DNA of 32,677 bases from Candidatus Methylomirabilota bacterium (lineage in GTDB: Bacteria; Methylomirabilota; Methylomirabilia; Rokubacteriales; CSP1-6). Below the pieces are notes generated by a model that worked only from the letters and a program-made list of their open reading frames with translations, was not told where the DNA came from and searched no databases. Where the stretch lies: assembly GCA_046726415.1 (NCBI GenBank), contig JBKPAK010000240.1, forward strand, positions 1 to 32,677. The letters are read 5' to 3'. Shown here in pieces: positions 6,221 to 31,297 of this stretch. Both the position numbers and the translations under genes were made by a program. The number at the start of each line of letters is the position of its first letter. Within the stretch, counting starts at the first letter, position 1.

Positions 6221-6496
6221 ATGTCTGAACACATCGCGCAGATGGGTCCGATGCTGATCCTCGCCGGGCTCATGGCCGGGTGGGTGGCCGAGGCGGTCTC
6301 ACGAGCGGACGGCTATGGGCTTATCCTCGATATGGTTCTCGGGCTCATCGGGAGTGTGGTCGTGGGCGCGACCGTCTGGGCCGTGATCTCCAGCGACGCA
6401 GGGATGCCGGCGACGTTCCTGATCGGGTGCGGAGGCGCGGCGCTCGCGATCGTCGCTCAGCGCAGGTGCTGGCGCTCCGCCCGACCCGGAACATGA
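6221..6496 (+). CDS. GlsB/YeaQ/YmgE family stress-response membrane protein
   Basis: LILAGLMAGWVAEAVSRADGYGLILDMVLGLIGSVVVG...GAALAIVAQR. Confidence 0.8.
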   Translation: MSEHIAQMGPMLILAGLMAGWVAEAVSRADGYGLILDMVLGLIGSVVVGATVWAVISSDAGMPATFLIGCGGAALAIVAQRRCWRSARPGT

Positions 6497-6579
6497 GCAT
6501 CATCGCGGCACTGTCGGGACACCTCCGCGCCCTGACTCCGGCCGGGCGGATCCCTCATCCGAACGCAGAGGAGACAACC

Positions 6580-8074: not shown

Positions 8075-8860
8075 TCAGCCGGTTGTCCGCGTCGGCACCC
8101 GCCTGAGCGGAAGGCCGCGCGCCGCCGATTCGCGCGCCCACGCCACCGGCGGTCCAACGATGACGAGCAGGCGCAGGGCGGCGAGCGCGCGGATGACCGG
8201 CCACGACGGATCGAATTCCGCGCCGCGGACACTGAACTTTGCCGAGCGCGGATGGGCGTGGTGGTTGTTGTGCAGGCTCTCGCCGCCGCTGACCCATGCG
8301 AAGAAGCGCGAGTTGTACGCCGTGTTCTCGAAGTTCTGACGACCGTGCCAGTGGCCGAGCCCATTGATCAGGGGCGCGAGCACGAAGACGTAGAGAACGG
8401 CGTGGGTGAGGCCAGCGATGAGGCCAGGCCCGAACCCGATGACGACACACAGCAGGGTCAGGCCGACGCCGACGCCCAGGAGGCCGCAGGAGAACACGGC
8501 CCGATCGAGACGATCCTCGGGCAGATCCGGGGCGAACGTGGCGATGGTGTGCGCGTTCCGGCACTCCCGCACGTAGTAGTAGACGTTGAAGAGCTGGACG
8601 CGCCAGAAGCCGAGCAGCCGCGGGCTGTGCGGGTCCCCTGCGCGGTCGGTGAAGGCGTGATGCTTGCGGTGAACGGCGACCCAGTGTTGTCGACGTTGGC
8701 CGGTGGTCAGCCACAGAATGACGCGAAAGACGACGTCGGCCGCCGGGTGCAGGCGCAGGGACCGGTGCGCCAACGCCCGATGCAGGTAGATCGATGTCGC
8801 GATGACGGCGATCTGAGTCAGCGCCACCGCGACAATCGGTATCGCCCACGCTCGGTTCAT
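8075..8860 (-). CDS. Membrane fatty acid (delta-9 acyl-CoA type) desaturase
   Basis: His boxes YLHRALAH, VHRKHH and LHNNHH; GDPHSP; INGLGHW. Confidence 0.93.
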   Translation of the reverse strand: MNRAWAIPIVAVALTQIAVIATSIYLHRALAHRSLRLHPAADVVFRVILWLTTGQRRQHWVAVHRKHHAFTDRAGDPHSPRLLGFWRVQLFNVYYYVRECRNAHTIATFAPDLPEDRLDRAVFSCGLLGVGVGLTLLCVVIGFGPGLIAGLTHAVLYVFVLAPLINGLGHWHGRQNFENTAYNSRFFAWVSGGESLHNNHHAHPRSAKFSVRGAEFDPSWPVIRALAALRLLVIVGPPVAWARESAARGLPLRRVPTRTTG

Positions 8861-9015
8861 GCGGATACCTCCCTCAAGGAGATCGGCGGGCCGCCGCGCG
8901 GGGGTTCCCGTGAACCGATATCCAGATCAGACAATGGGAAACGATACCACAATACTATATAAGAGCTAGATGGAATATAATTTACGCAGTGGTCGCCCCC
9001 CTGGCGATGCTTGGT

Positions 9016-17867: not shown

Positions 17868-17974
17868 CCTCGATCAATCGAGGGCGCTGATCGGCTCGGC
17901 CTCTCTCGGGGCACGCGGGAGGCCCGCGCTGGAAGAACAAGGGCTGAACCCTGATCGGTATGCCTCCCGCCTCT

Positions 17975-18019
17975 TCAGGGCCCGGCCCGTCGGGCCGGCC
18001 CGACCATGGCGAAATCCAT
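17975..18019 (-). pseudogene. Remnant start of a GlsB/YeaQ/YmgE gene (MDFAMV..., early stop)
   Basis: Start and leader (gaaatccatgattcttttcctt) nearly match those of the intact copy at 24420 (gagatccatgattcttctcctt; MDLAMV). Confidence 0.6.
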
Positions 18020-18058
18020 GATTCTTTTCCTTCTCCGAGGGCACCCTTCAGGTTTCCC

Positions 18059-18110
18059 TTGACAGACTATATAGCACGTAATAAATTATATAAGAGCAAT
18101 AAATTATATG
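18059..18110 (+). promoter_or_regulatory. Sigma70-type promoter TTGACA-N17-TAAATT overlapped by a TATATA-N13-TATATA-N12-TATATG array
   Basis: TTGACA 18059-64, TAAATT 18082-87; TATATA 18068-73 and 18087-92, TATATG 18105-10; the same layout occurs at 24476-24527. Confidence 0.7.
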
Positions 18111-18145
18111 AAGGTGGAAAGAGCAATAAATTATATGAAGGTGGA
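18092..18145 (+). repeat. Perfect 27-bp tandem duplication AAGAGCAATAAATTATATGAAGGTGGA x2
   Basis: Copies at 18092-18118 and 18119-18145. Confidence 0.95.
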
Positions 18146-18203
18146 TCCGAGCGCCCACCGTCTGACGGACGGGCAGGCGGCTCGACACGGAACGGGAGGG
18201 GTG

Positions 18204-18521
18204 ATGCTCGCGAACAAGACCAGAGTCCTTCTCATTCTCCCCCGCGACCTTCTGGATCGGGCCCGGGTCCTGGCGGGAAAGGCGACCGTGGCGTTGAGGC
18301 TCCCCGTGAGCCTGCAGATTGTCCTCCGGGCCCTGATCGGGGAGGGGCTGAAGCGCACCGACGACCCCGCCCTCCTCGCCAACGTGGAGGGGCAGGCCAA
18401 CGCGGTCCGCCAGATTCGGAGCGCGGGGCGTCAAGGCGTGGGGGCCCAGGAGAAAGACGGAAATCGAGCTCCGGAATCCGGCGATGGGCGAGCGGTCGTG
18501 CGCCAGAGGCGCCGGACGTGA
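18204..18521 (+). CDS. RHH-like putative regulator (cassette copy 1)
   Basis: MLANKTRVLLILPRDLLDRARVLAGKAT...LPVSLQIVLRALIGEGL; GGGAGG RBS; 56 of the first 69 residues identical to 30977..31297 by manual alignment. Confidence 0.8.
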   Translation: MLANKTRVLLILPRDLLDRARVLAGKATVALRLPVSLQIVLRALIGEGLKRTDDPALLANVEGQANAVRQIRSAGRQGVGAQEKDGNRAPESGDGRAVVRQRRRT

Positions 18522-18634
18522 GGAGGGGTGCGCCGCGATCCAGCGAAAGAGGAGTCGGCGCGCAGGGGGCTCGACGCCCATCACACGTGACGACGACGAA
18601 CGCTGAGGACGAGCGGCTGAGCAGGGAGACGACG

Positions 18635-18910
18635 ATGTCGAAATGGATCGGTTTGACCGTCTTGGTCGCGGCGCTAGCCATGATGGCTCTCGGGTGCGCC
18701 CAGCAGCCGTAGACGACGGCAGCGGAAACTGACTAGATCTAACACGGTGACGCCAGCGTCGGTGCAGGTGAAGGCCGCAATCGTGACGGGCGAAGTCACG
18801 GAGATGAAGGTCACGGAGCGGGTCGAGAAACGCTCCATCCGTGTCGTCGCCAAGTTCTCCCCGTGCGGTAGCCGCGAGCGGATCGACCCCGCGGGCCGCG
18901 CCAAGACGCT
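18635..18910 (+). pseudogene. Lipoprotein pseudogene paralogous to the C-terminal domain of 4819..5652
   Basis: MSKWIGLTVLVAALAMMALGCAQQP*, then a frameshift, then VTPASVQVKAAIVTGEVTEMKVTERVE..RVVAK joined by deletion to FS..GSRERIDP. Confidence 0.85.
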
Positions 18911-18949
18911 ATCGCGCTTGGGTCTTCGGCGCCTGCCCGCAACGCGGGC

Positions 18950-20842
18950 TCACAACTCGATCTGGCCGCCGACCTCGAGCACCTGGGCGGTCGGGATTCG
19001 ATAGAATCCCGTCGCCCGGGCGGCATTCATGGCCATGAATGCGAACAGTTTCTCCCGCCACAACGCCATACCCGGACGCGGCGAGGCGATGAGCGTCTCG
19101 GGGCTGAGGACGTAGATGGCGACGCTCGGGTCGATCACCAGCCCCTGCCCCCGACACTGACTCACCGCCCGCGGAACGTTCGGCTGCTCGAGAAAGCCAT
19201 AGCGCGCGGTCACCCTGAAGAAGCCCAGCCCCAGGGGCTGGACCTTCAGGCGATTGCCGGCCTCGACTCGCGGCACACGCTCCGCGAGGACCGTCAAGAA
19301 CACCACATGCTCGTGCAGCGCGTTGAACACGCGCAGCAGGCGGCGGAGGGCCGCCGGGATCAGCTCGGGATGGCCGGTCATGTAGATCACGGTTCCCGGC
19401 ACGCGGGCGGGCCGGGCCGCCTCGACGTGCTGCTTCAGCTCCCCGAGGCTCATGGACTGCTCCCGGAGCCGCTCGATCAACATGCGCCGACCGGTGCGCC
19501 AGGTCGTCATAAGGAGCACGGCCCCCACGCCGACCAGGAGAGGGAACCACCCGCCATCGGCCACCTTGACGAGGTTCGCGGCGAGGAACGCCGCGTCAAT
19601 GGCCAGGAAGAAGCCCGTGAGCGCGGCCGCCAGGGGTAGGCTCCACCCCCAGAGTCGGCGCATGACCGTGAACGCGAGGATCGTGGTGATCACCATGGTC
19701 CCGGTGACGGCGACTCCATACGCGGCCGCCAGGTTGCTCGACGTCCTGAACCCGAGGACCAGCGCGACCGTCGCCACCAGCAGCCCCTGATTGACCAGCG
19801 GGATGTAGATCTGCCCGATCTCATCCTCAGAAGTGTGGATCACGCGGACGCGCGGCAGGAGCCCGAGCTGGACCGCCTGCCACGTCAGTGAGAACGCCCC
19901 GCTGATCACGGCCTGTGACGCGATGACCGTCGCCGCCGTCGCCAGCGCGACCAGCGGATACAAGGCCCACGACGGCGCCAGATGATAGAAGGGGTTCGCC
20001 GCCAGGGCGGGGTCGCGGAGCAGCAGGGCGCCCTGGCCGAAGTAGTTGAGGAGCAGCGCGGGCAGGACCACCGTGAACCAGGCGAGCCGGATGGGCCGGC
20101 GGCCGAAGTGTCCCATGTCCGCGTACAGCGCCTCGCCGCCGGTGACCACCAAGAACACCGATCCCAGCACGAGGAACCCCCGGCCTCCGTTCTCGGAGAA
20201 AAAGCGCCCCGCATGTCCCGGGTTCACCGCGGCCAGCACTTCCGGAGCTCGGGTGAGCGCGGCCAGGCCGAGGACGGCGAGGCAACAGAACCACGCGACG
20301 GTGATGGGCCCGAACAGCGCCCCTATGGCACCCGTACCCCGGCGCTGCAATGCGAAGATACCGACGAGAACGGCAACGGTCAGAGGGATCACGTACGGCC
20401 CGAAGACCGGCGTGGCCACGGTGAGGCCCTCGATGGCGCTGAGCACGGAGATGGCGGGGGTGATCATCCCGTCTCCGTAGAGGAGCGCGGCGCCGAAGAG
20501 CCCGAGGAGGAGGAGGCTGTAGGAGCCCCTGCCCTCCGTGGCCGGGGGCACCGCCAGTGCCATGAGCGCGAGGATGCCCCCCTCACCCCGGTTGTCCGCG
20601 CGCAGGATGAGCACGAGGTACTTGACCGAGACGACGAGAATGAGCGACCACATGGTGAGGGAGAGGACGCCGAGGACGTTCGCCGCGGTCGGCTCGACCG
20701 CGTGAGGGCCTCTGAAACACTCCCGGAGTGCGTACAGCGGGCTCGTCCCGATGTCCCCGTAGACAACCCCCAGCGCGGCGAGCACCAGTGTGGGCAGTGG
20801 CGATGGGCCGGGCGCGCCGCCACGGGCGCATGATGTCGTCAT
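18950..20842 (-). CDS. kup: KUP/HAK/KT potassium transporter
   Basis: LAALGVVYGDIGTSPLYA, LRADNRGEGGILAL, YGDGMITPAISVLSAIEGL, TGGEALYADMGHFG, GQIYIP, LAAAYG. Confidence 0.97.
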   Translation of the reverse strand: MTTSCARGGAPGPSPLPTLVLAALGVVYGDIGTSPLYALRECFRGPHAVEPTAANVLGVLSLTMWSLILVVSVKYLVLILRADNRGEGGILALMALAVPPATEGRGSYSLLLLGLFGAALLYGDGMITPAISVLSAIEGLTVATPVFGPYVIPLTVAVLVGIFALQRRGTGAIGALFGPITVAWFCCLAVLGLAALTRAPEVLAAVNPGHAGRFFSENGGRGFLVLGSVFLVVTGGEALYADMGHFGRRPIRLAWFTVVLPALLLNYFGQGALLLRDPALAANPFYHLAPSWALYPLVALATAATVIASQAVISGAFSLTWQAVQLGLLPRVRVIHTSEDEIGQIYIPLVNQGLLVATVALVLGFRTSSNLAAAYGVAVTGTMVITTILAFTVMRRLWGWSLPLAAALTGFFLAIDAAFLAANLVKVADGGWFPLLVGVGAVLLMTTWRTGRRMLIERLREQSMSLGELKQHVEAARPARVPGTVIYMTGHPELIPAALRRLLRVFNALHEHVVFLTVLAERVPRVEAGNRLKVQPLGLGFFRVTARYGFLEQPNVPRAVSQCRGQGLVIDPSVAIYVLSPETLIASPRPGMALWREKLFAFMAMNAARATGFYRIPTAQVLEVGGQIEL

Positions 20843-20993
20843 GTGTCGGAGGTCCTGCGGGCTACGACGGGGATGCTCGGCACGGTCGGCCTGCGCGCGC
20901 GCCGGCGGGCGGGATCGCGCTTCGGGGGGGAGCGGCGCCCTTCAGCGGCCGCCGCGGGGAGCTGCGGGCTCCCGCGCCCCCCTCGGGTGTTCG

Positions 20994-21180
20994 CTAGGTG
21001 GTGAGACCGTACGACCGGCCCGCGCTCTCACAGACGCTCTTGCGGGTGGTCTCCGGCGGCAGGTGGCTGCACTGATCGACGATGTACTTCGACGATTCAG
21101 GCCAGACACCGTCGCCGTGCGAGTAGTCGGAGCCCCACATAAGCGTATGTGCCCTCGTTATCTCGAGGTGATTCACGCCC
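20994..21180 (-). pseudogene. C-terminal remnant of an amidohydrolase_2 family protein
   Basis: LMWGSDYSHGDGVWPESSKYIVDQCSHLPPETTRKSVCESAGRSYGL matches the typical (MW)GSDYPH...ENA..YGL C-terminus; no N-terminal part. Confidence 0.75.
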
Positions 21181-21272
21181 GGCGTTGTGCCGAGGGCACC
21201 GGGTCGCCAAGACCGCTCGGTGGATCCCCTCGACCCCGACGTGCGGTACGCGCACCACCTCATCGTCGGGTT

Positions 21273-22160
21273 TCAGCACCGGGCGGGAATATTCCCTAAG
21301 TGCAATGACCTCAGATACTGCCGAAATGGCTCGCCAAGGTCTGGGCGCGACAGTGCAAACTCCACCGTAGCTTTCAGGAAACCTAGTTTGTCACCCGTAT
21401 CGTAGCGCTTACCGCAAAACTCCACGGCGAAAATGGGCCTTCGTCTTCGCAGAGCGACCAGCGCGTTCGTGAGCTGAATTTCCCCGCCAGCGTCGGGGGG
21501 CGTCTCGACCAAGATTGGAAAGATGTCAGGCGTCAGCACGTAGCGGCCGACGATCGCCATATCCGACGGAGCGGCGCTGGCGGTAGGCCTCTCGATCAGG
21601 TCAAGCACTTCATACACGTTAGCTCCGAGCGGCCTCGACCTGATCACTCCATATTGCCCGATTTCGTTGCGCCCGACTCGCATAACTGCCAAGACGGGCC
21701 CTCCCGCTTGCTCGAATACGTCCAGAAGTTGGCGCATACACGGCACAGGAGCAACGATGAGGTCATCGGCCAGGAAGACTCCAAACGGTTCTTGGCCGAC
21801 CACGGGCCCGGCACACAGGATGGCGTGCCCAAGCCCGAGCGGTTCCTTCTGGCGAACATACGCCAGCGAAGCCAGCTCGGAAATTGCCTCAATCTGGGCG
21901 AGCTCTTCGGTTTTTCCGCGTTTGTGCAGATAGTACTCGAGCTCAAAGGCGGCATCGAAATGGTCCTCGACGGCACGCTTGCTTCGGCCGGTGACGAGGG
22001 TGATGTGGTCGAGCCCCGATGCAACTGCTTCCTGCACGACGTACTGGATGATGGGGGTGTCGACGAGCGGTAGCATCTCCTTAGGCTGCGCCTTGGTGGC
22101 CGGCAAAAAGCGCGTGCCCAACCCCGCGGCCGGGAAGACGGCTCTACGAACTTGCATCAC
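21273..22160 (-). CDS. galU: UTP--glucose-1-phosphate uridylyltransferase
   Basis: RAVFPAAGLGTRFLPATKAQPKEMLPLVD, RQKEPLGLGHAILCA, GGEIQLT, YDTGDKLGFLKAT. Confidence 0.97.
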   Translation of the reverse strand: MMQVRRAVFPAAGLGTRFLPATKAQPKEMLPLVDTPIIQYVVQEAVASGLDHITLVTGRSKRAVEDHFDAAFELEYYLHKRGKTEELAQIEAISELASLAYVRQKEPLGLGHAILCAGPVVGQEPFGVFLADDLIVAPVPCMRQLLDVFEQAGGPVLAVMRVGRNEIGQYGVIRSRPLGANVYEVLDLIERPTASAAPSDMAIVGRYVLTPDIFPILVETPPDAGGEIQLTNALVALRRRRPIFAVEFCGKRYDTGDKLGFLKATVEFALSRPDLGEPFRQYLRSLHLGNIPARC

Positions 22161-22423
22161 TTCATGATAGCAGCTTACCCGCCTGCCGCCGACTTCGAGC
22201 CAAGCAACAGCGCGGACATTCGACGAGGGATCGATTGATGTGTGTCTTACTGCCGTTCCCTCGCTAAACGAGGGCCGCCGGCGAGAGCTCCTTAAGGATG
22301 TGGAGCGGAAAGACCTTCGGGCACCGATTGACCTCAGCGCGATTGGGGGGTGCCGGGAGCGCCTCGCGGGCGGGGCGCGTGTCGGTCGGCAGCCGGCACG
22401 GCCCCGGTCGCAGCCGCCCTCGA

Positions 22424-22870
22424 TCAGGCGGCCTTAACTTCGATCGTCCTCGGAGTCGCGGCGCGCGGCGCGGGGACCCTCACCACGAGCATGCCATTCG
22501 CATACTTCGCCTCCACTTGGGCGGCGTCGACGCCCTCGGGAAGGGTGACACTCCGCTGGAACGCGCCATACGGGACCTCGCGGACGAAATAGTCCTGGCC
22601 CGAGGTGTCGTGGTCGGCCTTACGCTCGCCCTTGACGGTGAGCACATTGTCCATCAAAGACACCTCGACGTCCTTCGGGTCCACGCCCGGCAACGCGAGC
22701 TGGATGATGTAGCTCCCGTCGTCGATCCGCCCCTCCGCGGCGGGGAGCCACGGCGCGGCACGCTGAACGGCCTCGTCGGCGGCGCCGTCGAAGGCCCTTC
22801 CGAGAAGGGTGTTGACGCCGTGGTGGAAATGGAACTGCCGGGTCGGGGACCAGCGAAGCATGGTGGTCAT
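22424..22870 (-). CDS. Small heat shock protein Hsp20/alpha-crystallin
   Basis: ALPGVDPKDVEVSLMDNVLTVKGERK...REVPYGAFQRSVTLPEGVD...AKYANGMLVVRVP...IEV; GAGGAG RBS. Confidence 0.95.
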   Translation of the reverse strand: MTTMLRWSPTRQFHFHHGVNTLLGRAFDGAADEAVQRAAPWLPAAEGRIDDGSYIIQLALPGVDPKDVEVSLMDNVLTVKGERKADHDTSGQDYFVREVPYGAFQRSVTLPEGVDAAQVEAKYANGMLVVRVPAPRAATPRTIEVKAA

Positions 22871-23035
22871 GATGTTCTCCTCTCTCAATAACCTCGTGTT
22901 TCACAGTCAGTCATACCAAACGATCTATATATACTCATATCACCTATTGTGGATCGTGTCAATGGCCCTTGCTGGTTACTGTTCCTCGGTGGCGGGCGTG
23001 CACTCGCTCGGCGACACGACGAGCGCGGTCCCCAT

Positions 23036-23232
23036 ATTCCGGACGACACTGGCGACCGTCGTCTCCGGCATCCCATACCAGCGAAAGATACTCGGGACTT
23101 CGTCCATCTTCGACCTGTAGGACGGCGACGGTTTCCCTTCTCTCGCGCGTACTCCGAGACGTAATGCTCTGCATCCGTGCACGCCGCCAGATAGCCCCCG
23201 AAACCCATAGCAATCGCCCCGGCCGCCACCAC
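23036..23232 (-). pseudogene. Internal frameshifted fragment of a VIT1/CCC1 (Fe/Mn transporter) family gene
   Basis: VAAGAIAMGFGGYLAACTDAEHYVSEYAREK, then in another frame DEVPSIFRWYGMPETTVASVV. Confidence 0.65.
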
Positions 23233-23377
23233 CCTGCGGGCAAGCACACGACTCGACATGAGGACGGTCCTCCCTCGAGGCTCGTCGCTCGCGCTCCTGC
23301 TACCCGCAGCCGAGCCGATGGACGTGGCGAGTATGGGTCCTGGATAATCTCGTCGCCACTGGGAGCCCCGGCTCCGG

Positions 23378-23863
23378 TCAGTTCAGCCGAGCGCGTAGGC
23401 GATGAAGCATCTTGGCTGCCCGGACATCGCCAGGCGCAAGCCGCACTGCCCCTTCCAACTCACGGAGCGCCTCCCACCAGCGCCTCTGCTGAAGATAAAT
23501 CCGCCCGAGGTTCATGAAGGGGAACTGCCGCGGCTCGTAGCGGGTGGCCTGCTTGGCCTGTTCGAGCCACGGAATCGCCTCGTCCAGCTTGTCCTGTTGC
23601 ATCAGGTAGACCCCGATGTCGTTATATGGATTGCCGAACTCGGGATCGATTTCGATCGCGCGGAGGCACTCCCGGGTGGCCTCCTCGAGTCGACCCTGGA
23701 AGCTCATGGTCCACCCCAGGAAGGTGTGCCCCTCCGCCGTCGGGTACACCTCGATGGAGCGCTGGTAGAGCTCGATCGCGCGGTCCAGCTCTCCCTTCAT
23801 CTGGTAGCCGTAGGCCTCCTGCCAGAGCTTCGTCGCCTCCTCGTGGGTCTGTCGTTCTTCCAT
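23378..23863 (-). CDS. Tetratricopeptide repeat protein
   Basis: AYGYQMKGELDRAIELYQRSIEVYPTAEGHTFLGW...AIEIDPEFGNPYNDIGVYL...FMNLGRIY; GGAG RBS before ATG 23863. Confidence 0.9.
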   Translation of the reverse strand: MEERQTHEEATKLWQEAYGYQMKGELDRAIELYQRSIEVYPTAEGHTFLGWTMSFQGRLEEATRECLRAIEIDPEFGNPYNDIGVYLMQQDKLDEAIPWLEQAKQATRYEPRQFPFMNLGRIYLQQRRWWEALRELEGAVRLAPGDVRAAKMLHRLRARLN

Positions 23864-23925
23864 GTGCCGTCTCCCCGTCAACGCGAGAGAGCTCCATCGC
23901 GATGCGCCCGCGCGTCCTGGACCAG

Positions 23926-24070
23926 TGGGCACGTCGACCAGATCGATCCGAACCTTCCCCTCCCCGACCAGCACGGACAGGAGCGATGTCGTCGCCCTCT
24001 CGGAGATGCCGAGCCGAAGCCCAATTTCAGCGGGCGCCAATGCTCCCTTGCCCGTCAGGCAGCCCAGGAT
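23926..24070 (-). pseudogene. 5'-truncated small winged-helix protein
   Basis: ILGCLTGKGALAPAEIGLRLGISERATTSLLSVLVGEGKVRIDLVDV has an HTH pattern and reads through in frame into the TPR gene. Confidence 0.6.
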
Positions 24071-24072
24071 GT

Positions 24073-24150
24073 TCCGTCATCGGTCATCGTGCCGGTCTCG
24101 ACCACAACCACCGTGCCCTCCTGGGGCTTCTCCTTCTCCGTGTCCGGGAT
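24073..24150 (-). pseudogene. groES: groES internal fragment
   Basis: IPDTEKEKPQEGTVVVVETGTMTDDG vs [26 protein letters not shown] in the intact GroES: 20/26 identical. Confidence 0.85.
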
Positions 24151-24156
24151 GCGGTC

Positions 24157-24420
24157 CTAGGCGTGAGCGGGCCAGATCTTGTGCAGGGCGACTATCACGA
24201 GAGCCGCTCCGACGAACGCGACGACGGCCGTCGCGAGCGTCGCCGTTCCTGGAGACCCGCCGCCCAGGACCGAAAAGATCACGCTCGCCGCGCTGCTCCC
24301 GGCGAGTCCGAGGATGAGGTTCCAGACCAGCCCATACCCTCCGTCCTTGATCACGAATCCGGCCAGCCAGCCGGCCAGAAGCCCAACGAGAACTGCCGTC
24401 GCGACCATCGCGAGATCCAT
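24157..24420 (-). CDS. GlsB/YeaQ/YmgE family membrane protein (cassette copy 2)
   Basis: VLVGLLAGWLAGFVIKDGGYGLVWNLILGLAGS...VVAFVGAALVIV...WPAHA; AAGGAG RBS. Confidence 0.88.
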   Translation of the reverse strand: MDLAMVATAVLVGLLAGWLAGFVIKDGGYGLVWNLILGLAGSSAASVIFSVLGGGSPGTATLATAVVAFVGAALVIVALHKIWPAHA

Positions 24421-24475
24421 GATTCTTCTCCTTTTCTGAGCGCCCTGAACTCCCGACCGCTCCTCCAGGTTTCGC

Positions 24476-24527
24476 TTGACACAGTATATATTATGTAATA
24501 AATTATACAAGACATTAAAATTATATG
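24476..24527 (+). promoter_or_regulatory. Promoter TTGACA-N17-TAAATT with a TATATA-N13-TATACA-N12-TATATG array
   Basis: TTGACA 24476-81, TAAATT 24499-504; homologous to 18059-18110. Confidence 0.7.
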
Positions 24528-24597
24528 ATGAATAGTTGATCTGCGCGCCTGGCCGTCAACCCGACGGGAGAGCTGGCCGACACGGAACGGGAGGGTG

Positions 24598-24745
24598 ATG
24601 TTCGCGCATAGGACGAGTCCTCTCATTCTCCCCCGGGACCTCCTGGACCGGGCCCGAGTCCTGGCGGGGAAGGCGACGGCCAGGTTCAAGCTCCCGGTGA
24701 GCCTGCCGAGTGTCCTCCGCCCTGCTCGCCAACGTGGAGGGCGGG
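24598..24745 (+). pseudogene. RHH-like regulator pseudogene (cassette copy 2)
   Basis: MFAHRTSPLILPRDLLDRARVLAGKATARFKLPVSL, then a ~40 bp frameshifting deletion and loss of the 3' end relative to 18204..18521. Confidence 0.85.
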
Positions 24746-24768
24746 CCGGCTTGAGCAGGCAAAAGACG

Positions 24769-25107
24769 ATGTCGAAATGGACCGGGTTGACGATCCTGGC
24801 AGGGGCGGTGGCGGTGATGGTCCCCGGCTGCTCCCAGCAGCTGTCAGGGGCGTTGATTGAGGACAAGACGACCGCGGTGATGCCAGCCTCGGTACCGGTG
24901 AAGGCCGGAATCGTCCCCCGAGAACAGCCCATCAACCTGGAGGAGTCACGGACCGAACCGAGCCTCAAGTTCTCCGGGCACGGCGCCAGCGAGGGGTTCG
25001 ACCCCGGGCAGGAGGCGAACCAGTCCCTTGAGATGGGAGTTCCCCGATGCAGCCCTGAAGGGGAAGAAGCTCAAGGAGATCCGCTTGGAGGTATTCCCCT
25101 TGGGTGA
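24769..25107 (+). pseudogene. Lipoprotein pseudogene (cassette copy 2)
   Basis: MSKWTGLTILAGAVAVMVPGCSQQ...IEDKT.AVMPASVPVKAGIV, internal deletion, QPINLEESRTEPSLKF...FDPGQEANQSL, frameshift, FPDAALKGKKLKEIRLE. Confidence 0.85.
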
Positions 25108-25154
25108 TCTTCCACTTCGCACAGAGTGCCTCGACGGGTGATCGGGAGAACACG

Positions 25155-25508
25155 ATGCAACTCATGGATGGCCTCGCGGAGCTTCGCGGGCAGGGCAGGA
25201 TGACCTGGATCGACGAGGAGCACGGATGGGTCGCTGCGCCCGAGGACATCATGAATGCTCTGTCGAGTGAGGGCTTCGAAGAATGCAAGCGCGAGATGAC
25301 CACGAGCCGGCGGGACAGCCGTCCGGCGGGCGGCGTGTGGCAGGGCATCGACCCCCGGACGGGATGCGTGGCCTCAATGATCTGGGTGAATCGTCCGACG
25401 TCTCCGGATGCCATCGTGTTCATGGCGATCAATGGCGAGTCACTCACGGGCGCCGGCGCCCCGAGCACAGACCGGGATCCATACAGGGAGGACGGAGGGG
25501 AGGCCTGA
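25155..25508 (+). CDS. Hypothetical protein, 117 aa
   Basis: GGGAG RBS; MQLMDGLAELRGQGRMTWIDEEHGWVAAPEDI...GGVWQG; GC3-rich frame. Confidence 0.7.
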   Translation: MQLMDGLAELRGQGRMTWIDEEHGWVAAPEDIMNALSSEGFEECKREMTTSRRDSRPAGGVWQGIDPRTGCVASMIWVNRPTSPDAIVFMAINGESLTGAGAPSTDRDPYREDGGEA

Positions 25509-25572
25509 TGCCGTTGGCCTCGTCCGACGGCGCGCCAACGGCAGCCGACGTAGCGACAGGTCGGGCAGCCCG

Positions 25573-26019
25573 ATGACGCGTGAACAAGGCCGCCGGCGTG
25601 CTGCGGTGCTCCTGATCCTCGCGGTGGTGCTCTGGTTTCATGCTTGGTTTCCAGCCCTCCTCGTGGTCGCGTTCGTGGTCTGGGTTCTCCTCCACAAGCG
25701 GCTGGAGGGCGATCTCGGACAAGACCTCCTTCCTCTGTGGCGGCGCGCCTGGCCGCCAGCACCCCTTGTGCTCGTTCCTCTCCTCATCGCCGCCACCACG
25801 GCGTGCTGGGTTTCAGACCAGCCGGTGTTGAGAAAGGTCATGCCGCTCACGCTCAACCTGTTCGCGCTGTCGATGATCGTGTTTGGGCACTGGTGGAAGC
25901 CCGTCCCGCACGACAGGCGGCGCGACTCAGTCCATATCGGAAATCCCGGCTACGCGCCGAGCATGAGGCCGCGTGCTCACCTATCGGATGATAGACGGCC
26001 AGGAGGTGTCCCCTCATGA
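25573..26019 (+). CDS. Hypothetical membrane protein (about 4 TM)
   Basis: Hydrophobic segments AAVLLILAVVLWFHAWFPALLVVAFVVWVLL, PLVLVPLLIAATTACWV, LTLNLFALSMIVFG. Confidence 0.6.
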   Translation: MTREQGRRRAAVLLILAVVLWFHAWFPALLVVAFVVWVLLHKRLEGDLGQDLLPLWRRAWPPAPLVLVPLLIAATTACWVSDQPVLRKVMPLTLNLFALSMIVFGHWWKPVPHDRRRDSVHIGNPGYAPSMRPRAHLSDDRRPGGVPS

Positions 26020-26435
26020 TGACGATCGTGACCCGTGTCACGTTGAAGGAAGCCAGCGCGCCCGAGTGGGATGCCGCCATGCGCGAGCGGCTCGACGCCG
26101 CTCAGCATCAGCCGGGCTGGATCGGCGCCCAGCTCCTCATTCCGCTAGAAAGCCTCAGTAAGCGCGTCCTCATTGGCACCTGGCAGACACGCGCCGACTG
26201 GGAGGCCTGGCACAAGGACCTCGCCTTCGCCGAAACGCGCAAACGGCTGGAGGGATTGGAGGCGACACCGGGGGAGGAGTGGTGGCACGAAGTTGTCTTG
26301 GACATGGGGAAAGGCGTTCGAGCACCGGGAGAGCTCAAGGGGATCACGAGGCGATTGGGGGATGCCCGGGAGCGGCTCGCCACGGCACTGATCGCCACAG
26401 GGAACCGGCTCCGTCCGGGAGCACGGCGAGCCTGA
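26016..26435 (+). CDS. Antibiotic biosynthesis monooxygenase (ABM/dimeric alpha-beta barrel) family protein
   Basis: IVTRVTLKE...QPGWIGAQLL...VLIGTWQTRADWEAWHKDLAF; GGAGG RBS. Confidence 0.85.
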   Translation: MMTIVTRVTLKEASAPEWDAAMRERLDAAQHQPGWIGAQLLIPLESLSKRVLIGTWQTRADWEAWHKDLAFAETRKRLEGLEATPGEEWWHEVVLDMGKGVRAPGELKGITRRLGDARERLATALIATGNRLRPGARRA

Positions 26436-26472
26436 CGACGTGCGGTCGACGGGGGCCAAGCGGGTGTCTCCG

Positions 26473-26600
26473 TTGCGCGACTACCTCGACGCGCTCGTGG
26501 CCCGCGGCCTCAAGGCGCCGGTGCCGTGCATCATCGACGGGCATGCCGGCCTGAGGCGCGCTGGGGAGCTGATGGGGCCGGCCGCCGCGGTGCAACGGGT
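26473..26600 (+). mobile_element. IS256-family (mutator) transposase remnant
   Basis: LRDYLDALVARGLKAPVPCIIDGHAGLRRAGELMGPAAAVQR resembles the IS256 L..RGL..P.L.I.DG..GL..A....WP.A.VQRC region. Confidence 0.75.
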
Positions 26601-26630
26601 GCCGCAACCTGGAGCGAGCAACGGCTCCTC

Positions 26631-26750
26631 GCTCCCCGCGCACCAGGGCAGACCCCTTCGGGGAGCAGGTGATCGGCTCAATCCGCCGCGAGTACCTGGC
26701 CCCACGGAACCGCCCGCGCCCGAGCAGCAACTCGTCGGCGTTCACCAACT
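26631..26750 (+). mobile_element. Integrase-core (rve_3; IS3/IS481-like) transposase remnant
   Basis: APRAPGQTP, frameshift, EQVIGSIRREYL; compare APR.PWQN..AERVIGSIRRECL. Confidence 0.65.
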
Positions 26751-26769
26751 CGGCCGGGTCGTCGATCGC

Positions 26770-28170
26770 ATGGACTGGTTCTATTCGGCCGTGTGGCTCG
26801 TCGTGCGATTCTGGCTTTGGTTCTTCTTCAAGCCCGTCGACGTCCGGCACCCCGAGCGCGTCCCGGCCGGCGGCCCGGTGCTCCTCTGCATCAACCACCC
26901 GAACAACCTGATCGATTCGCTGGTCGTGGGGGCAGCGCTCCGGAGGAAGGTCCACTACCTCGCCGCAGCGGCGCTCTTCCGCAAACCCCTGGCCGCCCGT
27001 TTCTTGCGTGCGTGCGGGGCGATCCCCGTCTACCGGAAGGGGGACGACCCGGACAAGATGGACCCGAATGGGAAAGCCTTTGCCGCCTGCTTCGAGGCGC
27101 TCAAGGGCGGCCGCCTCATTGCGATCTATCCTGAGGGCACGACGCATGCCGACGCGGGCGTCCAGCGCATCAAGAGCGGCGCGGCCCGCATCGCCCTGGG
27201 CCACGAGGCGGCCCGACCGGGCGAGCTGTCGCTCGTTGCCGTGGGGCTCACGTTCGAGGCGCGCAAATCCTTCCTCGGGCGAGTGCTCGTCTCCTTCGGG
27301 GAGCCGATCCCAGTGGCGCCGTACTTCGAGGCCTATCGGGGGGACTCGCACAAGGCGGTCGCTGCCCTGACCCTAGCGATCCAGCGGGCGATGGAGGCCG
27401 AGCTCGTCCACCTCGAGCGCATCGAGGCGACCGAACTGGTCCGCGCGGTCGAGGAGCTTTACCGGGGCGAGCTGATCAGTGAGCTGTTGGCCACGCGAGG
27501 CCTCGGTGCCTGGCAGATCGATCCCTGCCGGTTGTCCCGCGCGATCGTCGACGCCGTGAACTACTTCAAGGCGCGCGACCCCGAGCGGGTGGAGCGGCTC
27601 TGGCAACGAATCCAGAGCTACCGCGCCCTTCTGGATGAGTACCACGTGAAGGACGAAGCGGTGCAAGCGCGGCGGCGGCGGCCACTGCGCCGGGAGCGTG
27701 TTCGCCATTCGTGGGAAGCGATCCTGGGCTTCCCCTTCTTCGTCTACGGCGCCGTCGTCAACGGCCTCCCGTACCTGATCCCCCGCTGGCTGGCCCGCCG
27801 GCTGGCCAGGAAGGAAACCGATTACGCTACCGTGCGCTTCCTGACGAGTGTCGTCGCGTTCCCGCTGTTCTGGATGCTTGAGACGTGGGTGGTCGGACGG
27901 CTGACTGGGGCGGCGGGAGCCGCGATCTTCGCGCTGTCGCTGCCGCTGAGCGGTCTGATCGCGTATCGCTACCTGGTGGGTGCCAGCCGCCTGCGCAGTC
28001 GGCTCCGCCTCAGCGTCCTCGCCTTCACGCGCGAGCAGGCGGCCCGATGCCTCGTGGCCGAACGCGAGGCGATCATCGCCGAGCTCGAGCGCGCCAAGGC
28101 GGACTACCTCGCCCCGAACGTAAGCAGCCTTGACGATGCGCGCCGCCTGGCAGAGATGTCGACCCTATAG
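26770..28170 (+). CDS. Lysophospholipid/glycerol-3-phosphate acyltransferase (PlsC-like) with C-terminal TM helices
   Basis: NHPNNLID (HX4D), GAIPVYR and IYPEGT motifs. Confidence 0.9.
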   Translation: MDWFYSAVWLVVRFWLWFFFKPVDVRHPERVPAGGPVLLCINHPNNLIDSLVVGAALRRKVHYLAAAALFRKPLAARFLRACGAIPVYRKGDDPDKMDPNGKAFAACFEALKGGRLIAIYPEGTTHADAGVQRIKSGAARIALGHEAARPGELSLVAVGLTFEARKSFLGRVLVSFGEPIPVAPYFEAYRGDSHKAVAALTLAIQRAMEAELVHLERIEATELVRAVEELYRGELISELLATRGLGAWQIDPCRLSRAIVDAVNYFKARDPERVERLWQRIQSYRALLDEYHVKDEAVQARRRRPLRRERVRHSWEAILGFPFFVYGAVVNGLPYLIPRWLARRLARKETDYATVRFLTSVVAFPLFWMLETWVVGRLTGAAGAAIFALSLPLSGLIAYRYLVGASRLRSRLRLSVLAFTREQAARCLVAEREAIIAELERAKADYLAPNVSSLDDARRLAEMSTL

Positions 28171-28271
28171 GGTCGAAGTGGAGAGCCGCACCGGCAACAC
28201 TCGCAAAGGCCGATGCCCGTACTCGGGCCACCAACCGCGTGGTGCAGCGTCGCTACGAGGAGGGACCGCCG

Positions 28272-28682
28272 ATGGAGACGATCAAGGAATACGGAATCTC
28301 GCTGGGCTGGGTCGTGTGCTTCCTCCTCCTCGCGATGGTCGCGCGCTACGTGTTCGACTGGATCACGCCGTTCAGCCTCCGCGACGCCTCGGCGCAGAAG
28401 AATGTCGCGGTCGGGCGCGTTCTCCGCGGGCTCTACCTCGGGCTCGCCATCATCCTCGTCCCGGCCATGTATGCGACCCACAGCCTCCTCATCGCGCTCC
28501 GGGACGGCGCCGTCGGCATCGTGCTGATGCTCCTCCTCTTCAAGATCTACGACCTCATCGACCGGCGGGACTTCGCCGGGGAGCTGGCCGCTGGCAACGC
28601 GATGCTCGGCATGGAGCTCGAGGGCCTGTTCATCCTGCTCTCCGCCGTGATCGTCGGCGCGATGAACTACGTCGGCGGGTGA
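28272..28682 (+). CDS. DUF350-like membrane protein (two repeats)
   Basis: FDWITPFSL...KNVAVG and YDLIDRRDFAGELAAGNAMLG..L.GLFILLSAVI; GAGGAGG RBS. Confidence 0.75.
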   Translation: METIKEYGISLGWVVCFLLLAMVARYVFDWITPFSLRDASAQKNVAVGRVLRGLYLGLAIILVPAMYATHSLLIALRDGAVGIVLMLLLFKIYDLIDRRDFAGELAAGNAMLGMELEGLFILLSAVIVGAMNYVGG

Positions 28683-28752
28683 GAGCGCGTTAGGAGAACC
28701 TCTGGCCGCCCTTCAGGAAGTGCGCGGCCAAGGCTCATACCATGCACCAGTC

Positions 28753-29103
28753 TCATTTCTTCACAAGAAGATCGAGCCCATCGGCGCACGCTCGGGCTAC
28801 AGACCAGCCAGCCTTTTCTTGCCCGGGCATCTTGTCCCAGCCACCCTTTTCAATGATTTCAGCTCTCTGATAGCTACTGACTTCCGCGAGTGCTTTCAGT
28901 TTCTCTTCGGGGTTCGGTTGTTTCATAAACTGGGCGACGCAGATCGCCGCCTGACTCGCCACGACCGCCTCTCGGGTCATGGTTTGGGTAGTACCGGCGG
29001 TCGTCCAGCCACCCCACGCAAAGCCCACGGTCGTAGCGATGATTGCCCCACAAATAAGGCCCCAACTCCCATACTTAACCTTCGCGGCAGTCGCTGGCTT
29101 CAT
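28753..29103 (-). CDS. Conserved hypothetical single-TM protein, paralog of 29272..29628
   Basis: WGLICGAII..VGFAWGGW...ICVAQFMKQP...EKGGW..MPG...VARACADGL; AGGAGG RBS. Confidence 0.85.
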   Translation of the reverse strand: MKPATAAKVKYGSWGLICGAIIATTVGFAWGGWTTAGTTQTMTREAVVASQAAICVAQFMKQPNPEEKLKALAEVSSYQRAEIIEKGGWDKMPGQEKAGWSVARACADGLDLLVKK

Positions 29104-29271
29104 GACAAAACCTCCTGAAGGGGGATTCCCGATATGGAGCCATCCCGCTTCTCATGGCGCCGCCCACCGGGCGGACCGTCCAGTCAGTCAACTCGTTAAC
29201 TCGTTCACGTTTCCCGGCGCGTTGACGGCGGTGCTTCTGCCAACCCACCGCCGCCAAGTCGCCTCCTGCTG

Positions 29272-29628
29272 CTACACCTTGGCCTTCACGAGCGCGTCGG
29301 CGCAGGCACTGGCAAGTCCGGAGTTGGGCGTCTTGTCTCCTTGCGGAGTTGCCCAGCCGCCTTCTTCAACAGCCTGCCGCTGTTTCCACGAATCGATCTT
29401 CTGGAACTCTGCGAGCTTCGCCGCGGCATTGGGCTGCTGCATGAAGCTCGCGACGCAGGTCGGAGTGAGCGCGACGACCACAGCGGCGTTGGCGCGTTCA
29501 AGCGCCACCCGCTCGGCGGTGCCTCCGAGGGTCCAGCCGAGCCATGAAAAGCCGATGATCATGGTTCCTGCGGCGCCGACGATCGCGCCCCAGACCGCCG
29601 GTTTGAGCCAGGGGAGTTGCATTGCCAT
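29272..29628 (-). CDS. Conserved hypothetical single-TM protein, paralog of 28753..29103
   Basis: WLKPAVWGAIVGA..IIGFSWLGW...TCVASFMQQP...EEGGWAT...LASACADAL; GGAGG RBS. Confidence 0.85.
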   Translation of the reverse strand: MAMQLPWLKPAVWGAIVGAAGTMIIGFSWLGWTLGGTAERVALERANAAVVVALTPTCVASFMQQPNAAAKLAEFQKIDSWKQRQAVEEGGWATPQGDKTPNSGLASACADALVKAKV

Positions 29629-29837
29629 GGGACACCTCCGTGACAGCGGAACGGTACGACACGGTTAACTGCAAGGGTGGATGGGAGCGGCCGACGATCC
29701 CGCCCGATGCTCTGTGGCGGCTCGGGGCGCGGACTCCCCATCCGGTTGTCGGCACGGTCCGGCAAGCCGTCGCGGAGAGCCCACACCTTGGCCTGCTGCT
29801 CCCGTGTCTGAGCGTCCGTATCGAGCGATCCCATCGC

Positions 29838-30053
29838 TCAGCGGCGCCGACGCTGGGCATTCCATCGATACGTGCGGTCGAGCTCCGCCCGATTGTCGAC
29901 GTTCATCTCGATGAGGTGCTGGGTGCCGCTGGCCACTGCGGCAGCAATGGTCGGGAAGGTCTGATGCGACTCAGCGACCATTTCGCCATCGTAGCTGACG
30001 ATGCGCCAGCGCCAGTCAGGGCTCCGCGGAGAGCAGAAGGCGGCCACGTGCAT
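29838..30053 (-). CDS. Small protein with YegP/DUF1508-like pattern
   Basis: WRWRIVSYDGEMVAESHQTFPTIAAAV; starts 10 bp after the RRM stop. Confidence 0.65.
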   Translation of the reverse strand: MHVAAFCSPRSPDWRWRIVSYDGEMVAESHQTFPTIAAAVASGTQHLIEMNVDNRAELDRTYRWNAQRRRR

Positions 30054-30063
30054 GGCGAGCCGG

Positions 30064-30342
30064 CTACCAACGCTTTCCCGCGCGTCCACTCGAGCTGGGG
30101 GGATTGGCCCGCTCGACCTTCAGGATTCGGCCATCCACGTCCTGACCGTTGAACTTTGCCACCGCGGCCTCCGCGTCGGGGGCCGTCGCCATTTCGACGA
30201 AGCCGAAGCCGCGCGAGCGTCCGGTGTCGCGGTCCGTCACGACGGCGGCCGATTCGACGGTGCCGGCCTGGGTGAACAGCTCCCGCAGACGTTCGCTCGA
30301 CGTGGAAAAGGACAGGCCGCCGATGAAGAGTTTATGCGCCAT
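30064..30342 (-). CDS. RNA recognition motif (RRM/RNP-1) RNA-binding protein
   Basis: RNP2 KLFIGGLSF, RNP1 RGFGFVEM, TDRDTGRS, GRILKVERA. Confidence 0.96.
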   Translation of the reverse strand: MAHKLFIGGLSFSTSSERLRELFTQAGTVESAAVVTDRDTGRSRGFGFVEMATAPDAEAAVAKFNGQDVDGRILKVERANPPSSSGRAGKRW

Positions 30343-30466
30343 CTCGCACCCCCGAACAGGTCTCCCGCGTTGGGGACACGCCCTGGAGGGCGGAAGAGGG
30401 CGCCCAGGGCGGTGGTCTGGGGAGGGAGGGGGTTCACGATGAACCGCGACCGGACCAGACACGGCT

Positions 30467-30495
30467 AGCATGGCATCGTCCGCGTAGTAAGTCAA
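30467..30495 (-). promoter_or_regulatory. Putative promoter of the RRM operon (TTGACT-N17-CATGCT, extended TG)
   Basis: -35 at 30495-30490, -10 at 30472-30467; AT-rich TATATA-cga-TATATA tract just upstream. Confidence 0.45.
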
Positions 30496-30558
30496 ATAAA
30501 ATATATACGATATATAAAACGTGATACGGGACCCTGCCGAGCGGATGAGGTCACGTGC

Positions 30559-30819
30559 CTAGGCGTGCGCGTGCCAAACCTGACGCTGGGCGATGATCAC
30601 GACGGCCGCCCCGGCGAACGCCACCACCGCCGCCACGAAGATCCCCGCGTCCGCCGCGAGACCCAGGAGCGCGAAGATCTCACCGGCCACGGTGCTCCCG
30701 ATCAGGCCGAGGGTGAGGTCCCAGAGCCGCCCATGACCTCCGTCCTTCATCGCGAACCCGGCGAGCCAGCCGGTCAGCAGCCCCACGAGCACCAACGTCG
30801 CGAACATCGCGAAATTCAT
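30559..30819 (-). CDS. GlsB/YeaQ/YmgE family membrane protein (cassette copy 3)
   Basis: VLVGLLTGWLAGFAMKDGGHGRLWDLTLGLIGS...VVAFAGAAVVIIAQRQVWHAHA; GGAGG RBS. Confidence 0.88.
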   Translation of the reverse strand: MNFAMFATLVLVGLLTGWLAGFAMKDGGHGRLWDLTLGLIGSTVAGEIFALLGLAADAGIFVAAVVAFAGAAVVIIAQRQVWHAHA

Positions 30820-30883
30820 GGCCTTGCCTCCGCCGCGCGGACCCGGCTTTCCGCCGGGCCCGTCCGCGGTTTTCTTCGTATAA

Positions 30884-30908
30884 TATATATCACATATCGT
30901 AGTATATA
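30884..30908. promoter_or_regulatory. TATATA-N13-TATATA motif in the divergent glsB/RHH intergenic region
   Basis: TATATA at 30884-89 and 30903-08; same spacing as at 18068 and 24485. Confidence 0.55.
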
Positions 30909-30976
30909 GAATATGTCACTTGTAGCGAGTGAACCCGCGGTTGCGGCCGAGTGGGCGGGCCGAGACAGGAGGTGTC

Positions 30977-31297
30977 ATGTTCGCGAACAAGACGCGCGTC
31001 CTTCTCATCCTTCCCCAGGACGTCCTGGATCGGGCCAGGGTCTTGGCCGGGAAGGCGACGACCACGTTCAAGCTCCCCGTCAGCCTTCAGATCGTCCTCC
31101 GAGCTCTGGTCGAGGAGGGCTTGAGGCGCGACAACGATCCGGCCCTCCTCGCCAACGTCGAGGGGCAAGCCAAGGCAGTCCGCCTATTGCGCACGGTCGC
31201 GCGCCAAGGCCGGCTGAGCGAGGAGAAACGCGAGAATCCATCGTTGGGAACGAGGCGGCGACCGAGCGGTCGCGAGCGGCGGAGGCGCCGGACGTGA
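30977..31297 (+). CDS. RHH-like putative regulator (cassette copy 3)
   Basis: MFANKTRVLLILPQDVLDRARVLAGKAT...VSLQIVLRALVEEGL...RRRRT; AGGAGG RBS. Confidence 0.82.
   Translation: MFANKTRVLLILPQDVLDRARVLAGKATTTFKLPVSLQIVLRALVEEGLRRDNDPALLANVEGQAKAVRLLRTVARQGRLSEEKRENPSLGTRRRPSGRERRRRRT

Follow-up and report, generated by a model that had tools for sequence, protein, structure and literature searches.

Ribbon-helix-helix (RHH) autorepressors of the CopG/Arc/MetJ/omega type are small proteins encoded by the first gene of an operon; they form intertwined homodimers with an N-terminal segment and the second helix at the axis, recognize short repeated or palindromic boxes that overlap promoters, and serve replication, partition, or toxin genes. 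HrcA-CIRCE control of groESL places a dedicated DNA element before chaperone genes, and the cyanobacterial cold-inducible set, which includes crhR, rbp, desaturases, and the ribosomal protein S21, is controlled by Hik33 and DNA supercoiling. Rokubacteria are abundant, uncultivated soil bacteria, and to our knowledge nothing has been reported on how they control their stress genes. Here we describe a small, basic, RHH-like protein and an AT-rich DNA island directly upstream of its gene (the small gene), which recur on a 32,677-bp stretch of Rokubacteria (Methylomirabilota) DNA (the window, which is the whole of contig C240 of assembly G000) and are the constant core of the units in which they stand.

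Systems of this kind, with a small dimeric regulator before a divergent promoter pair, are well known. New are the protein family, its AT-rich site, its portable use in multiple copies before varied stress genes, and the pairing of GlsB with an immunoglobulin-like (Ig-like) domain. Like the RHH autorepressors, the small protein comes first in its operon, has a predicted intertwined homodimer in which the N-terminal segment and the second helix lie at the axis, and lies behind short repeated or palindromic boxes overlapping promoters, which are candidate sites. Unlike them, it shows no sequence or profile similarity to that family, has a longer inter-helix loop and an additional third helix, ends in a long basic tail, and is accompanied by stress genes as cargo. 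As with HrcA-CIRCE, a dedicated DNA element precedes chaperone genes, with glsB-groES-groEL standing on an island at two loci (C77 and L039), whereas the element, the protein family, and the layout all differ. The neighboring genes recall the cyanobacterial cold set (DEAD-box helicase, RRM protein, desaturase, and S21), a likeness in kinds of gene; in contrast to that set, chaperones and envelope proteins are also found here, and the candidate regulator is a small dimeric protein. We lean toward reading the unit as a lineage-restricted, autoregulated repressor-operator module that heads temperature and envelope stress genes, and consider this somewhat probable. The module offers a concrete and testable candidate pair of regulator and operator, a small protein and a DNA site of ~60-80 bp.

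A small protein and an AT-rich island as the constant core

The sequence-only reading of the window had proposed a modular cassette composed of a glsB-like membrane gene, a divergent RHH-like gene, and an Ig-like lipoprotein gene. We examined the neighbors of 42 distinct copies of the small gene outside this genome, taken from 44 loci (one from G011) after removal of seven duplicate rows and the contig's own locus; these copies are best-scoring matches (in the same-family survey, the 30 best-scoring of ~150), not a random sample. A divergent glsB was present at 15 of 39 copies, 12 of these being full length, and an Ig-like lipoprotein gene lay downstream on the same strand at 14 of 36, with the small gene first. 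Among the 33 copies with both flanks readable, five were full triads (L020 and L024 among them), seven had glsB only, eight had the lipoprotein only, and 13 had neither. The cassette therefore does recur elsewhere, whole in five copies and in part in 15 more, whereas the 13 copies lacking both partners speak against a fixed three-part unit. The constant core is narrower than the proposed cassette and consists of the small protein and the AT-rich island.

Searches used the intact copy 3 product (30977..31297, +; 106 amino acids [aa]) as query throughout and returned 1,302 homologs at E ≤ 0.01, almost all of ~106 aa and unnamed. The family is narrow: clustering at 50% identity places it in only 142 clusters, many of them fragments, out of 1.84 billion representatives. 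Within the same GTDB family, the small gene was present in 89 of 151 genomes (47 of the 67 high-quality genomes and 28 of 48 genera), at one to four copies per genome. A sample of the phylum gave 96 of 200 genomes, which came from families f1 (82/126), f7 (12/16), and f5 (1/1); the gene was not found in this sample in families f4 (0/16), f8 (0/12), f13 (0/19), or six smaller ones. Both tallies include genomes G011 and G041, which are flagged as unpublished. Conservation covers residues 1-75, where 24 columns are invariant across 29 sequences; a variable, arginine-rich, disordered C-terminal tail follows, and the charge balance is 25 K+R versus 11 D+E. Differences among 231 pairs fell on codon positions 1, 2, and 3 in the numbers 3,125, 2,363, and 6,182, a pattern that marks the small gene as a real coding gene. 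We found no paper joining "Rokubacteria" and "ribbon-helix-helix," and among the matches listed for Rokubacteria with stress, GroEL, or Hsp20 there was nothing on the phylum.

The islands have 24-32% G+C in a 67% G+C genome (the contig itself has 67%) and lie directly upstream of the small gene. In the window they occupy 18059..18145 (copy 1), 24467..24544 (copy 2), and 30868..30924 (copy 3, 26% G+C). Stretches with at least 30 A/T in 40 positions number 13 in the 7.6-Mb genome, five of them on this contig and one at a further unit on contig C77, and this rarity argues that the islands are not due to chance. In other genomes, where an island was defined as at least 28 A/T in 40 positions within 200 bp upstream, one was present before 36 of the 39 distinct copies with enough upstream sequence.

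When aligned on the TTGAC word, the islands have a common order of boxes: TTGAC(A/T), then TATATCA, then ATAAATTATAT(A/G)(T/A)CAAGTA, and then TTATATAA. The TATATCA box often completes a palindrome such as TTGATATATATCAA, and the conserved boxes, some of them palindromic, include TGAYATATATCA, TTATATWWCAAGTA, and TTATATAA. With up to two mismatches, TTATATWWCAAGTA occurs in 32 of 41 islands and in 0 of 2,000 random genome windows, counts that measure conservation and are not an independent test, as the motifs were derived from the same set of islands. Toward the small gene, a promoter scan found TTGACA-17-TAAATT in copies 1 (+ strand) and 2 (24476-24504) and the near-identical TTGACT-17-TAAATT at locus L024; a promoter-like site on the opposite strand lies inside the same island in copy 1 (TTCATA-16-TATAAT) and at L024. 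From its sequence, the island looks like two overlapping divergent promoters with their hexamers embedded in the conserved boxes. The copy 1 island also carries a perfect 27-bp tandem duplication (18092-18145) that doubles the ATAAATTATATGAAGGTGGA stretch. A single palindrome was considered as a universal operator and rejected; TGWTATATAWCA occurs with at most one mismatch only three times in the genome, one of these being in the copy 3 island (at 30881, with one mismatch), and not in copies 1 and 2. No Rfam family was found in the contig, so there is no support for leaders that contain a known RNA element.

Islands of the same word content also precede two genes of the contig other than the small gene. 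One (8944..8984, 24% G+C) lies ~85 bp upstream of the start of a fatty-acid desaturase gene (8075..8860, -; PF00487, E = 2.4e-14) and has no RHH-like gene beside it. The other (30479..30531, 32% G+C) lies between the glsB of copy 3 and the gene for an RRM-type RNA-binding protein downstream of that glsB (30064..30342, -; PF00076, E = 9.6e-21); it has words in common with the RHH islands, for example TATCAC and TTGACTTAC, and a second island of this type is also found at congener locus L002.

The predicted dimer and the proposed control of stress genes

The small protein is predicted to form an intertwined homodimer. In a model of two copies of residues 1-80, the dimer score was 0.72 against a best of 0.02 among three controls. 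In the benchmark, 20 of 30 proteins solved as same-chain pairs scored that high, as did 1 of 23 single-chain proteins, although these counts hold only roughly because an alignment of our own was used. The runs agreed in at least 98% of contacts, with a predicted local distance difference test score (pLDDT) of 82-84. The modeled interface is formed by residues 3-17 and 33-50, with self-contacts at 44-44, 45-45, and 48-48. This arrangement matches the layout of RHH dimers, though the N-terminal beta-ribbon is not visible in the model output. As for the assignment to RHH proteins made from the sequence alone, membership by sequence or profile was not borne out, and an intertwined dimer with residues 3-17 at its interface is predicted. 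The AF2 monomer (pLDDT 56.5) has coil at residues 1-13 and helices at 14-30, 35-52, and 55-86. A search of the Atlas gave one cluster with RHH_1 in 11% of its members (score 0.92, 149 shared features), which is a lead only, and the RHH protein PcfF, at VIA rank 43 (Z 5.3), was set aside as noise.

Genes confirmed by Pfam beside the small gene in other genomes, mostly at copies with neither glsB nor lipoprotein and at a few others, broaden the range of putative cargo. A fatty-acid desaturase gene lies directly downstream at four loci (L012, L015, L021, and L023), and other neighbors encode a cold-shock domain (CSD/CspA) protein (L057), Hsp20 (L019), RRM proteins (L011), DEAD-box helicases (L012 and L053), ribosomal proteins S1 (L007) and S21 (L048), MscL (L008), and a divergent Cpn10-Cpn60 pair (L039). 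Because chaperones and envelope proteins are among these neighbors, we refer to the set as temperature and envelope stress genes, not as cold-shock genes. The marked genes (glsB, Ig-like lipoprotein, desaturase, CspA, Hsp20, RRM protein, and GroES/EL) probably respond together. At the desaturase-type loci, a conserved small open reading frame (ORF) of 51-103 aa without a Pfam family (L015, 2127-2435, +; also L021 and L023) is divergent from the RHH-like gene and occupies the place held elsewhere by glsB.

Under the repressor-operator reading, the small basic protein, with its 75-aa core (a strand-like N-terminus and then three helices) and arginine-rich tail, would bind, as an intertwined dimer, the AT-rich island that immediately precedes its own gene and that would comprise two overlapping divergent sigma-70-like promoters and the conserved boxes. 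Because boxes and divergent promoters overlap, binding would repress both its own operon, with an Ig-like lipoprotein, desaturase, CspA, or Hsp20 as cargo, and the divergent arm, with glsB sometimes followed by groES-groEL or the RRM protein gene. Temperature or envelope stress may then release the dimer and turn both arms on. DNA binding, repression, and the stimulus are what we infer here; the conservation, the linkage, and the coding status are observed, and the dimer is predicted.

Several results weigh against this reading. The small protein has no sequence match in Pfam, NCBIfam, or PDB, and neither intact copy on the contig has a Pfam match; one of 28 family representatives gave a weak match to RHH_5 (E = 0.068), and the probability was 0.6% in a profile-profile comparison (hhalign) against nine RHH_1 proteins encoded in this genome. 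The low-confidence AF2 monomer had 0 matches in Foldseek and only helical hairpins in VIA (Z up to 7.3). A strict sigma-70 scan found no promoter-like site in the copy 3 island, and promoter function by itself may explain why the boxes, which overlap promoter hexamers, are conserved. The association is also incomplete in both directions, with a small gene that has no island (L003) and orphan islands that have no adjacent small gene (at 8944 and 30479 of the contig, and on C61).

The foremost alternative, which we regard as a serious though minority possibility, is that the small protein acts as an effector in the stress response, perhaps as a nucleic-acid-binding or chaperone-like basic protein. 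The island would then be a strong temperature- or supercoiling-sensitive promoter that serves RNA polymerase or some other factor and is not regulated by the small protein. The lack of detectable kinship to DNA-binding families, the arginine-rich disordered tail, the coincidence of the boxes with -35- and -10-like hexamers, and the orphan islands that precede a desaturase gene and an RRM gene in the absence of a neighboring small gene would all fit such an effector. So would the neighbors, which are of kinds that are cold inducible in cyanobacteria, where one report describes the cold induction of crhR and rbpA1 as dependent on DNA supercoiling (PMC3264485). On the other hand, a small, dimeric product of the first operon gene is the usual layout of an autoregulator, and in the relatives examined the island always lay beside the gene: five genomes with the small gene had islands at four of 18 desaturase and RRM loci (three distinct places), only where the small gene itself was adjacent, and five genomes without it had none at 17 such loci. 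This comparison does not discriminate between an operator and the gene's own promoter.

The repressor-operator reading also has a bolder form, to which we give slightly less credence than to the effector alternative. The small protein and the island would be a self-contained, duplicating temperature switch, in which a protein of new fold variant pairs with DNA sensitive to melting or supercoiling, and would run a Rokubacteria-specific cold/heat-shock regulon alongside HrcA-CIRCE, with GlsB and its Ig-like partner as the main envelope output. If true, such a switch would give the first mechanistic handle on the widespread GlsB/YeaQ/YmgE family.

GlsB and its Ig-like partner

GlsB/YeaQ/YmgE proteins (PF04226, "transglycosylase-associated") are widespread and stress-linked, and we know of no established mechanism for them. 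The GlsB proteins of the contig resemble the family in length (~86 aa), in three predicted transmembrane (TM) helices, and in their stress-linked context. They differ in that the contig copies score below the Pfam cut-off and in that GlsB is here paired or fused with a putatively periplasmic Ig-like domain under a dedicated AT-rich control region. A 277-aa fusion gene (4819..5652, +) encodes GlsB, a fourth TM helix, and the Ig-like domain. Against a PF04226 cut-off of 25.3 bits, the fusion scored 23.6 bits and the glsB of copy 2 scored 19.0; the glsB of copy 3 had no PF04226 match at E ≤ 0.01, and the match of glsB to NCBIfam PRK10457 was far below its cut-off. Several fusion homologs of 85-92% identity carry both a precomputed PF04226 match and the family name. 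The AF2 model of the fusion (pLDDT 64.6) has helices at 3-24, 31-51, 60-81, and 91-112 and strands at 126-269, the latter at pLDDT ~70-82. The GlsB part thus has three TM helices in the model, to which the products of the copy 2 and copy 3 glsB genes (87 and 86 aa) align. The literature on GlsB is mostly annotation-level mentions. In one report, overexpression of a GlsB-family member in Bifidobacterium animalis is stated to increase acid survival 22-fold (PMC12731931).

The Ig-like domain had 2,485 homologs. Fusions with GlsB (~276 aa) made up most of the best 120 of these, and the fusion is widespread in other genomes. The domain is also anchored by a single N-terminal TM helix (~187 aa) or as a lipoprotein with a lipobox Cys (~182 aa), and a signal peptide with a lipobox Cys was present in nine relatives. 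No Pfam or NCBIfam model covers the domain: the fusion matched only PF04226 in Pfam, the copy 2 remnant matched nothing in Pfam, and the intact lipoprotein of L024 matched nothing in NCBIfam. Structural comparison with VIA paired the modeled beta-sandwich with ApaG (1xvs; Z 8.6, root mean square deviation 3.1, 109 aligned) and with 4eae, 4r4g, 3cfu, and 4les (Z 7.2-7.8). Its likeness to ApaG, TRAP-beta, and DUF4352-type lipoproteins (Z 7.2-8.9) is in a range that the tool calls common. The Atlas auto-name of the domain's own cluster is "putative DUF4352," and Atlas DUF4352 clusters scored only 0.80. The domain thus has the character of a secreted or lipid-anchored beta-sandwich. Like the DUF4352-/ApaG-like Ig-folds (YcdA, YjhA, 4les, 4eae, and ApaG), it is a ~145-residue beta-sandwich with a lipobox Cys; unlike them, it has no Pfam match and occurs in three anchoring forms (lipid, single TM helix, and GlsB fusion).

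Because they are so often fused, GlsB and the Ig-like domain would act together, with the domain in the periplasm, and they are probably one membrane device. The fusion serves as a Rosetta-stone clue to the function of the GlsB/YeaQ/YmgE family. It also bears on a second alternative to the repressor-operator reading, an obligate three-part envelope-stress machine of GlsB, lipoprotein, and regulator, in which all other arrangements are products of decay. That glsB and the lipoprotein gene are by far the commonest neighbors (15/39 and 14/36) and are fused in many genomes, and that glsB stubs and lipoprotein remnants show that decay occurs, would suit such a machine. We nevertheless consider it improbable, in view of the five full triads as compared to the 13 partner-free copies among 33, the intact, Pfam-confirmed genes of other kinds that adjoin partner-free copies, and the contig's own fusion gene, which has no adjoining island or RHH-like gene.

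The units on the contig and their turnover

The assembly has 7.6 Mb in 352 contigs, with 98% completeness and 4.66% contamination. All features of the three paralogous units that the sequence-only reading had placed on the contig were confirmed at their positions. Copy 1 retains only the first codons of glsB (17994..18020, -, with its start at 18020), and homology of copy 1 to copy 2 and to C77 begins at 17994; similar stubs occur at L004, L008, and L021. It has an intact RHH-like gene (18204..18521, +; 105 aa) and a lipoprotein remnant (18635..18932, +) in two pieces. The first piece (18635-18712) encodes a signal peptide with its Cys and then a stop at 18710-18712; the second (18735-18932) is a frame-shifted body with an internal deletion and extends into the 3' end of kup.

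Copy 2 has an intact glsB (24157..24420, -; 87 aa) and an RHH-like remnant (24598..24744, +) that covers residues 1 to ~50, the C-terminal half being deleted. Within ORF 24595-25107, this remnant continues in frame into the signal peptide of a lipoprotein remnant (24769..25107, +); the Cys is present, part of the interior is deleted, and the frame changes close to the end. Copy 3 has an intact glsB (30559..30819, -; 86 aa) and an intact RHH-like gene and lacks a lipoprotein gene. A 92-aa ORF without a Pfam family follows this RHH-like gene (31382-31660, +), and a similar ORF is found at congener locus L006. The RHH-like proteins of copies 1 and 3 have 56 of their first 69 residues in common and both carry RRRT at the C-terminus, and the glsB products of copies 2 and 3 end in WPAHA and WHAHA, that is, in W-x-AHA. 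A tblastn search of the genome agreed that the fusion at 4819-5652 holds the sole intact Ig-like domain of the assembly. A fourth unit, on contig C77, has the order groEL-groES-glsB and, divergently, the RHH-like gene; its DNA is 85-91% identical to that of copy 2, and the two glsB genes have 97.7% identity. On this contig the module has undergone duplication, with decay of the cargo genes in copies 1 and 2.

Orthologous loci in two genomes of the same genus, G001 and G002, differ in content. The G001 locus that matches copy 2 (L096, on G001:C23) has an 81-aa core of the small gene and neither glsB nor a lipoprotein remnant. The G002 locus (L095, on G002:C6) is a whole C77-like unit beside an ndvB-like segment, in an orientation opposite to that of copy 1. 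The three genomes of this one genus thus differ by inversion relative to the ndvB-like segment, in the presence of glsB, and in the presence of the lipoprotein remnant. This variation among congeners suggests that cargo around the core turns over fast. Unequal decay of cargo around a stable core, even among congeners, shows how such modules turn over.

The units are probably not assembly artefacts. A short contig from a soil run spans the copy 1 stub, the island, and the start of the small gene (17900-18275) with one difference. The copy 2 island was matched with 0 differences by contigs of two runs, X1 (24405-24590) and X2 (24405-24572), and the junction of the groES remnant and glsB in copy 2 (24016-24185) was matched by a soil-run contig, also with 0 differences. 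This support is partial, as the best-covering soil run may be the source sample, and since all soil runs consist of short contigs, uncovered parts of the stretch cannot show absence. The joint 17947>24459 occurs in one single contig (side 22) and cannot show rearrangement, and RNA-library contigs over 18371-19174, 24240-24330, and 24866-25161 cannot show transcription. A third alternative is very improbable, namely that the small protein is an RHH protein of antitoxin type or from a mobile element, or that assembly of a mixed population produced the copies. In its favor, toxin-antitoxin and plasmid loci typically begin with a small RHH-like gene, and the contamination of the bin and the 85-91% identity of C77 to copy 2 would allow for mixing. 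Against it, the downstream genes (lipoprotein, desaturase, CSD, Hsp20, or unrelated ORFs) include no toxin-like partner, and the small protein had no match among 72,556 plasmids or among 50,697 phage records. The junctions at the stub, the island, and the remnant recur in contigs of other soil runs with 0-1 differences, and two congeners have orthologous loci.

Stress genes had been described beside each glsB. Next to copy 2, the hsp20 gene (22424-22888, -) and the TPR gene are real, and the "groES" proved to be a remnant of 33 codons directly after glsB (24055..24156, -), which matches a Pfam-confirmed Cpn10 at 15 of 20 residues. A further glsB paralog (6221..6496, +), found by tblastn with the glsB of copy 3 (38% identity over 81 aa), lies upstream of a Bax1-I/YccA-like gene (6280-7290, +; PF01027). 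Stress and osmotic genes are dense on the contig, among them genes for GroEL (Cpn60), a GntR-type regulator, the Bax1-I/YccA-like protein, and the Kup potassium transporter (1576-3195, -; 3709-4797, +; 6280-7290, +; 9016-17340, -; and 18950-20842, -). The GntR-type regulator directly precedes the GlsB-Ig fusion, and a 2774-aa ORF is "ndvB" by the label of the sequence-only reading alone.

Elsewhere in the genome, an island on C61 (630-701) has the same words, including TGATATATATTA, and is followed by a 29-codon arginine-rich ORF; a small membrane protein encoded on the contig (29272-29628) has a paralog ~1.2 kb away. The islands at C283:1137-1183 and C95:5618-5661 start with TTGACTTAT, and the ORFs after them, which begin VIRKLREAEGLTQ and VIRDLREQAQMT, look by eye like XRE-type helix-turn-helix proteins; these islands are probably a different kind of element. 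Additionally, contig C17 carries a second groES-groEL with its own upstream inverted repeat (TTAGCACT...AGTGCTAA, ~790-866), which we take to be CIRCE-like, and an AT-rich palindrome, and the genome seems to have two differently controlled chaperonin operons.

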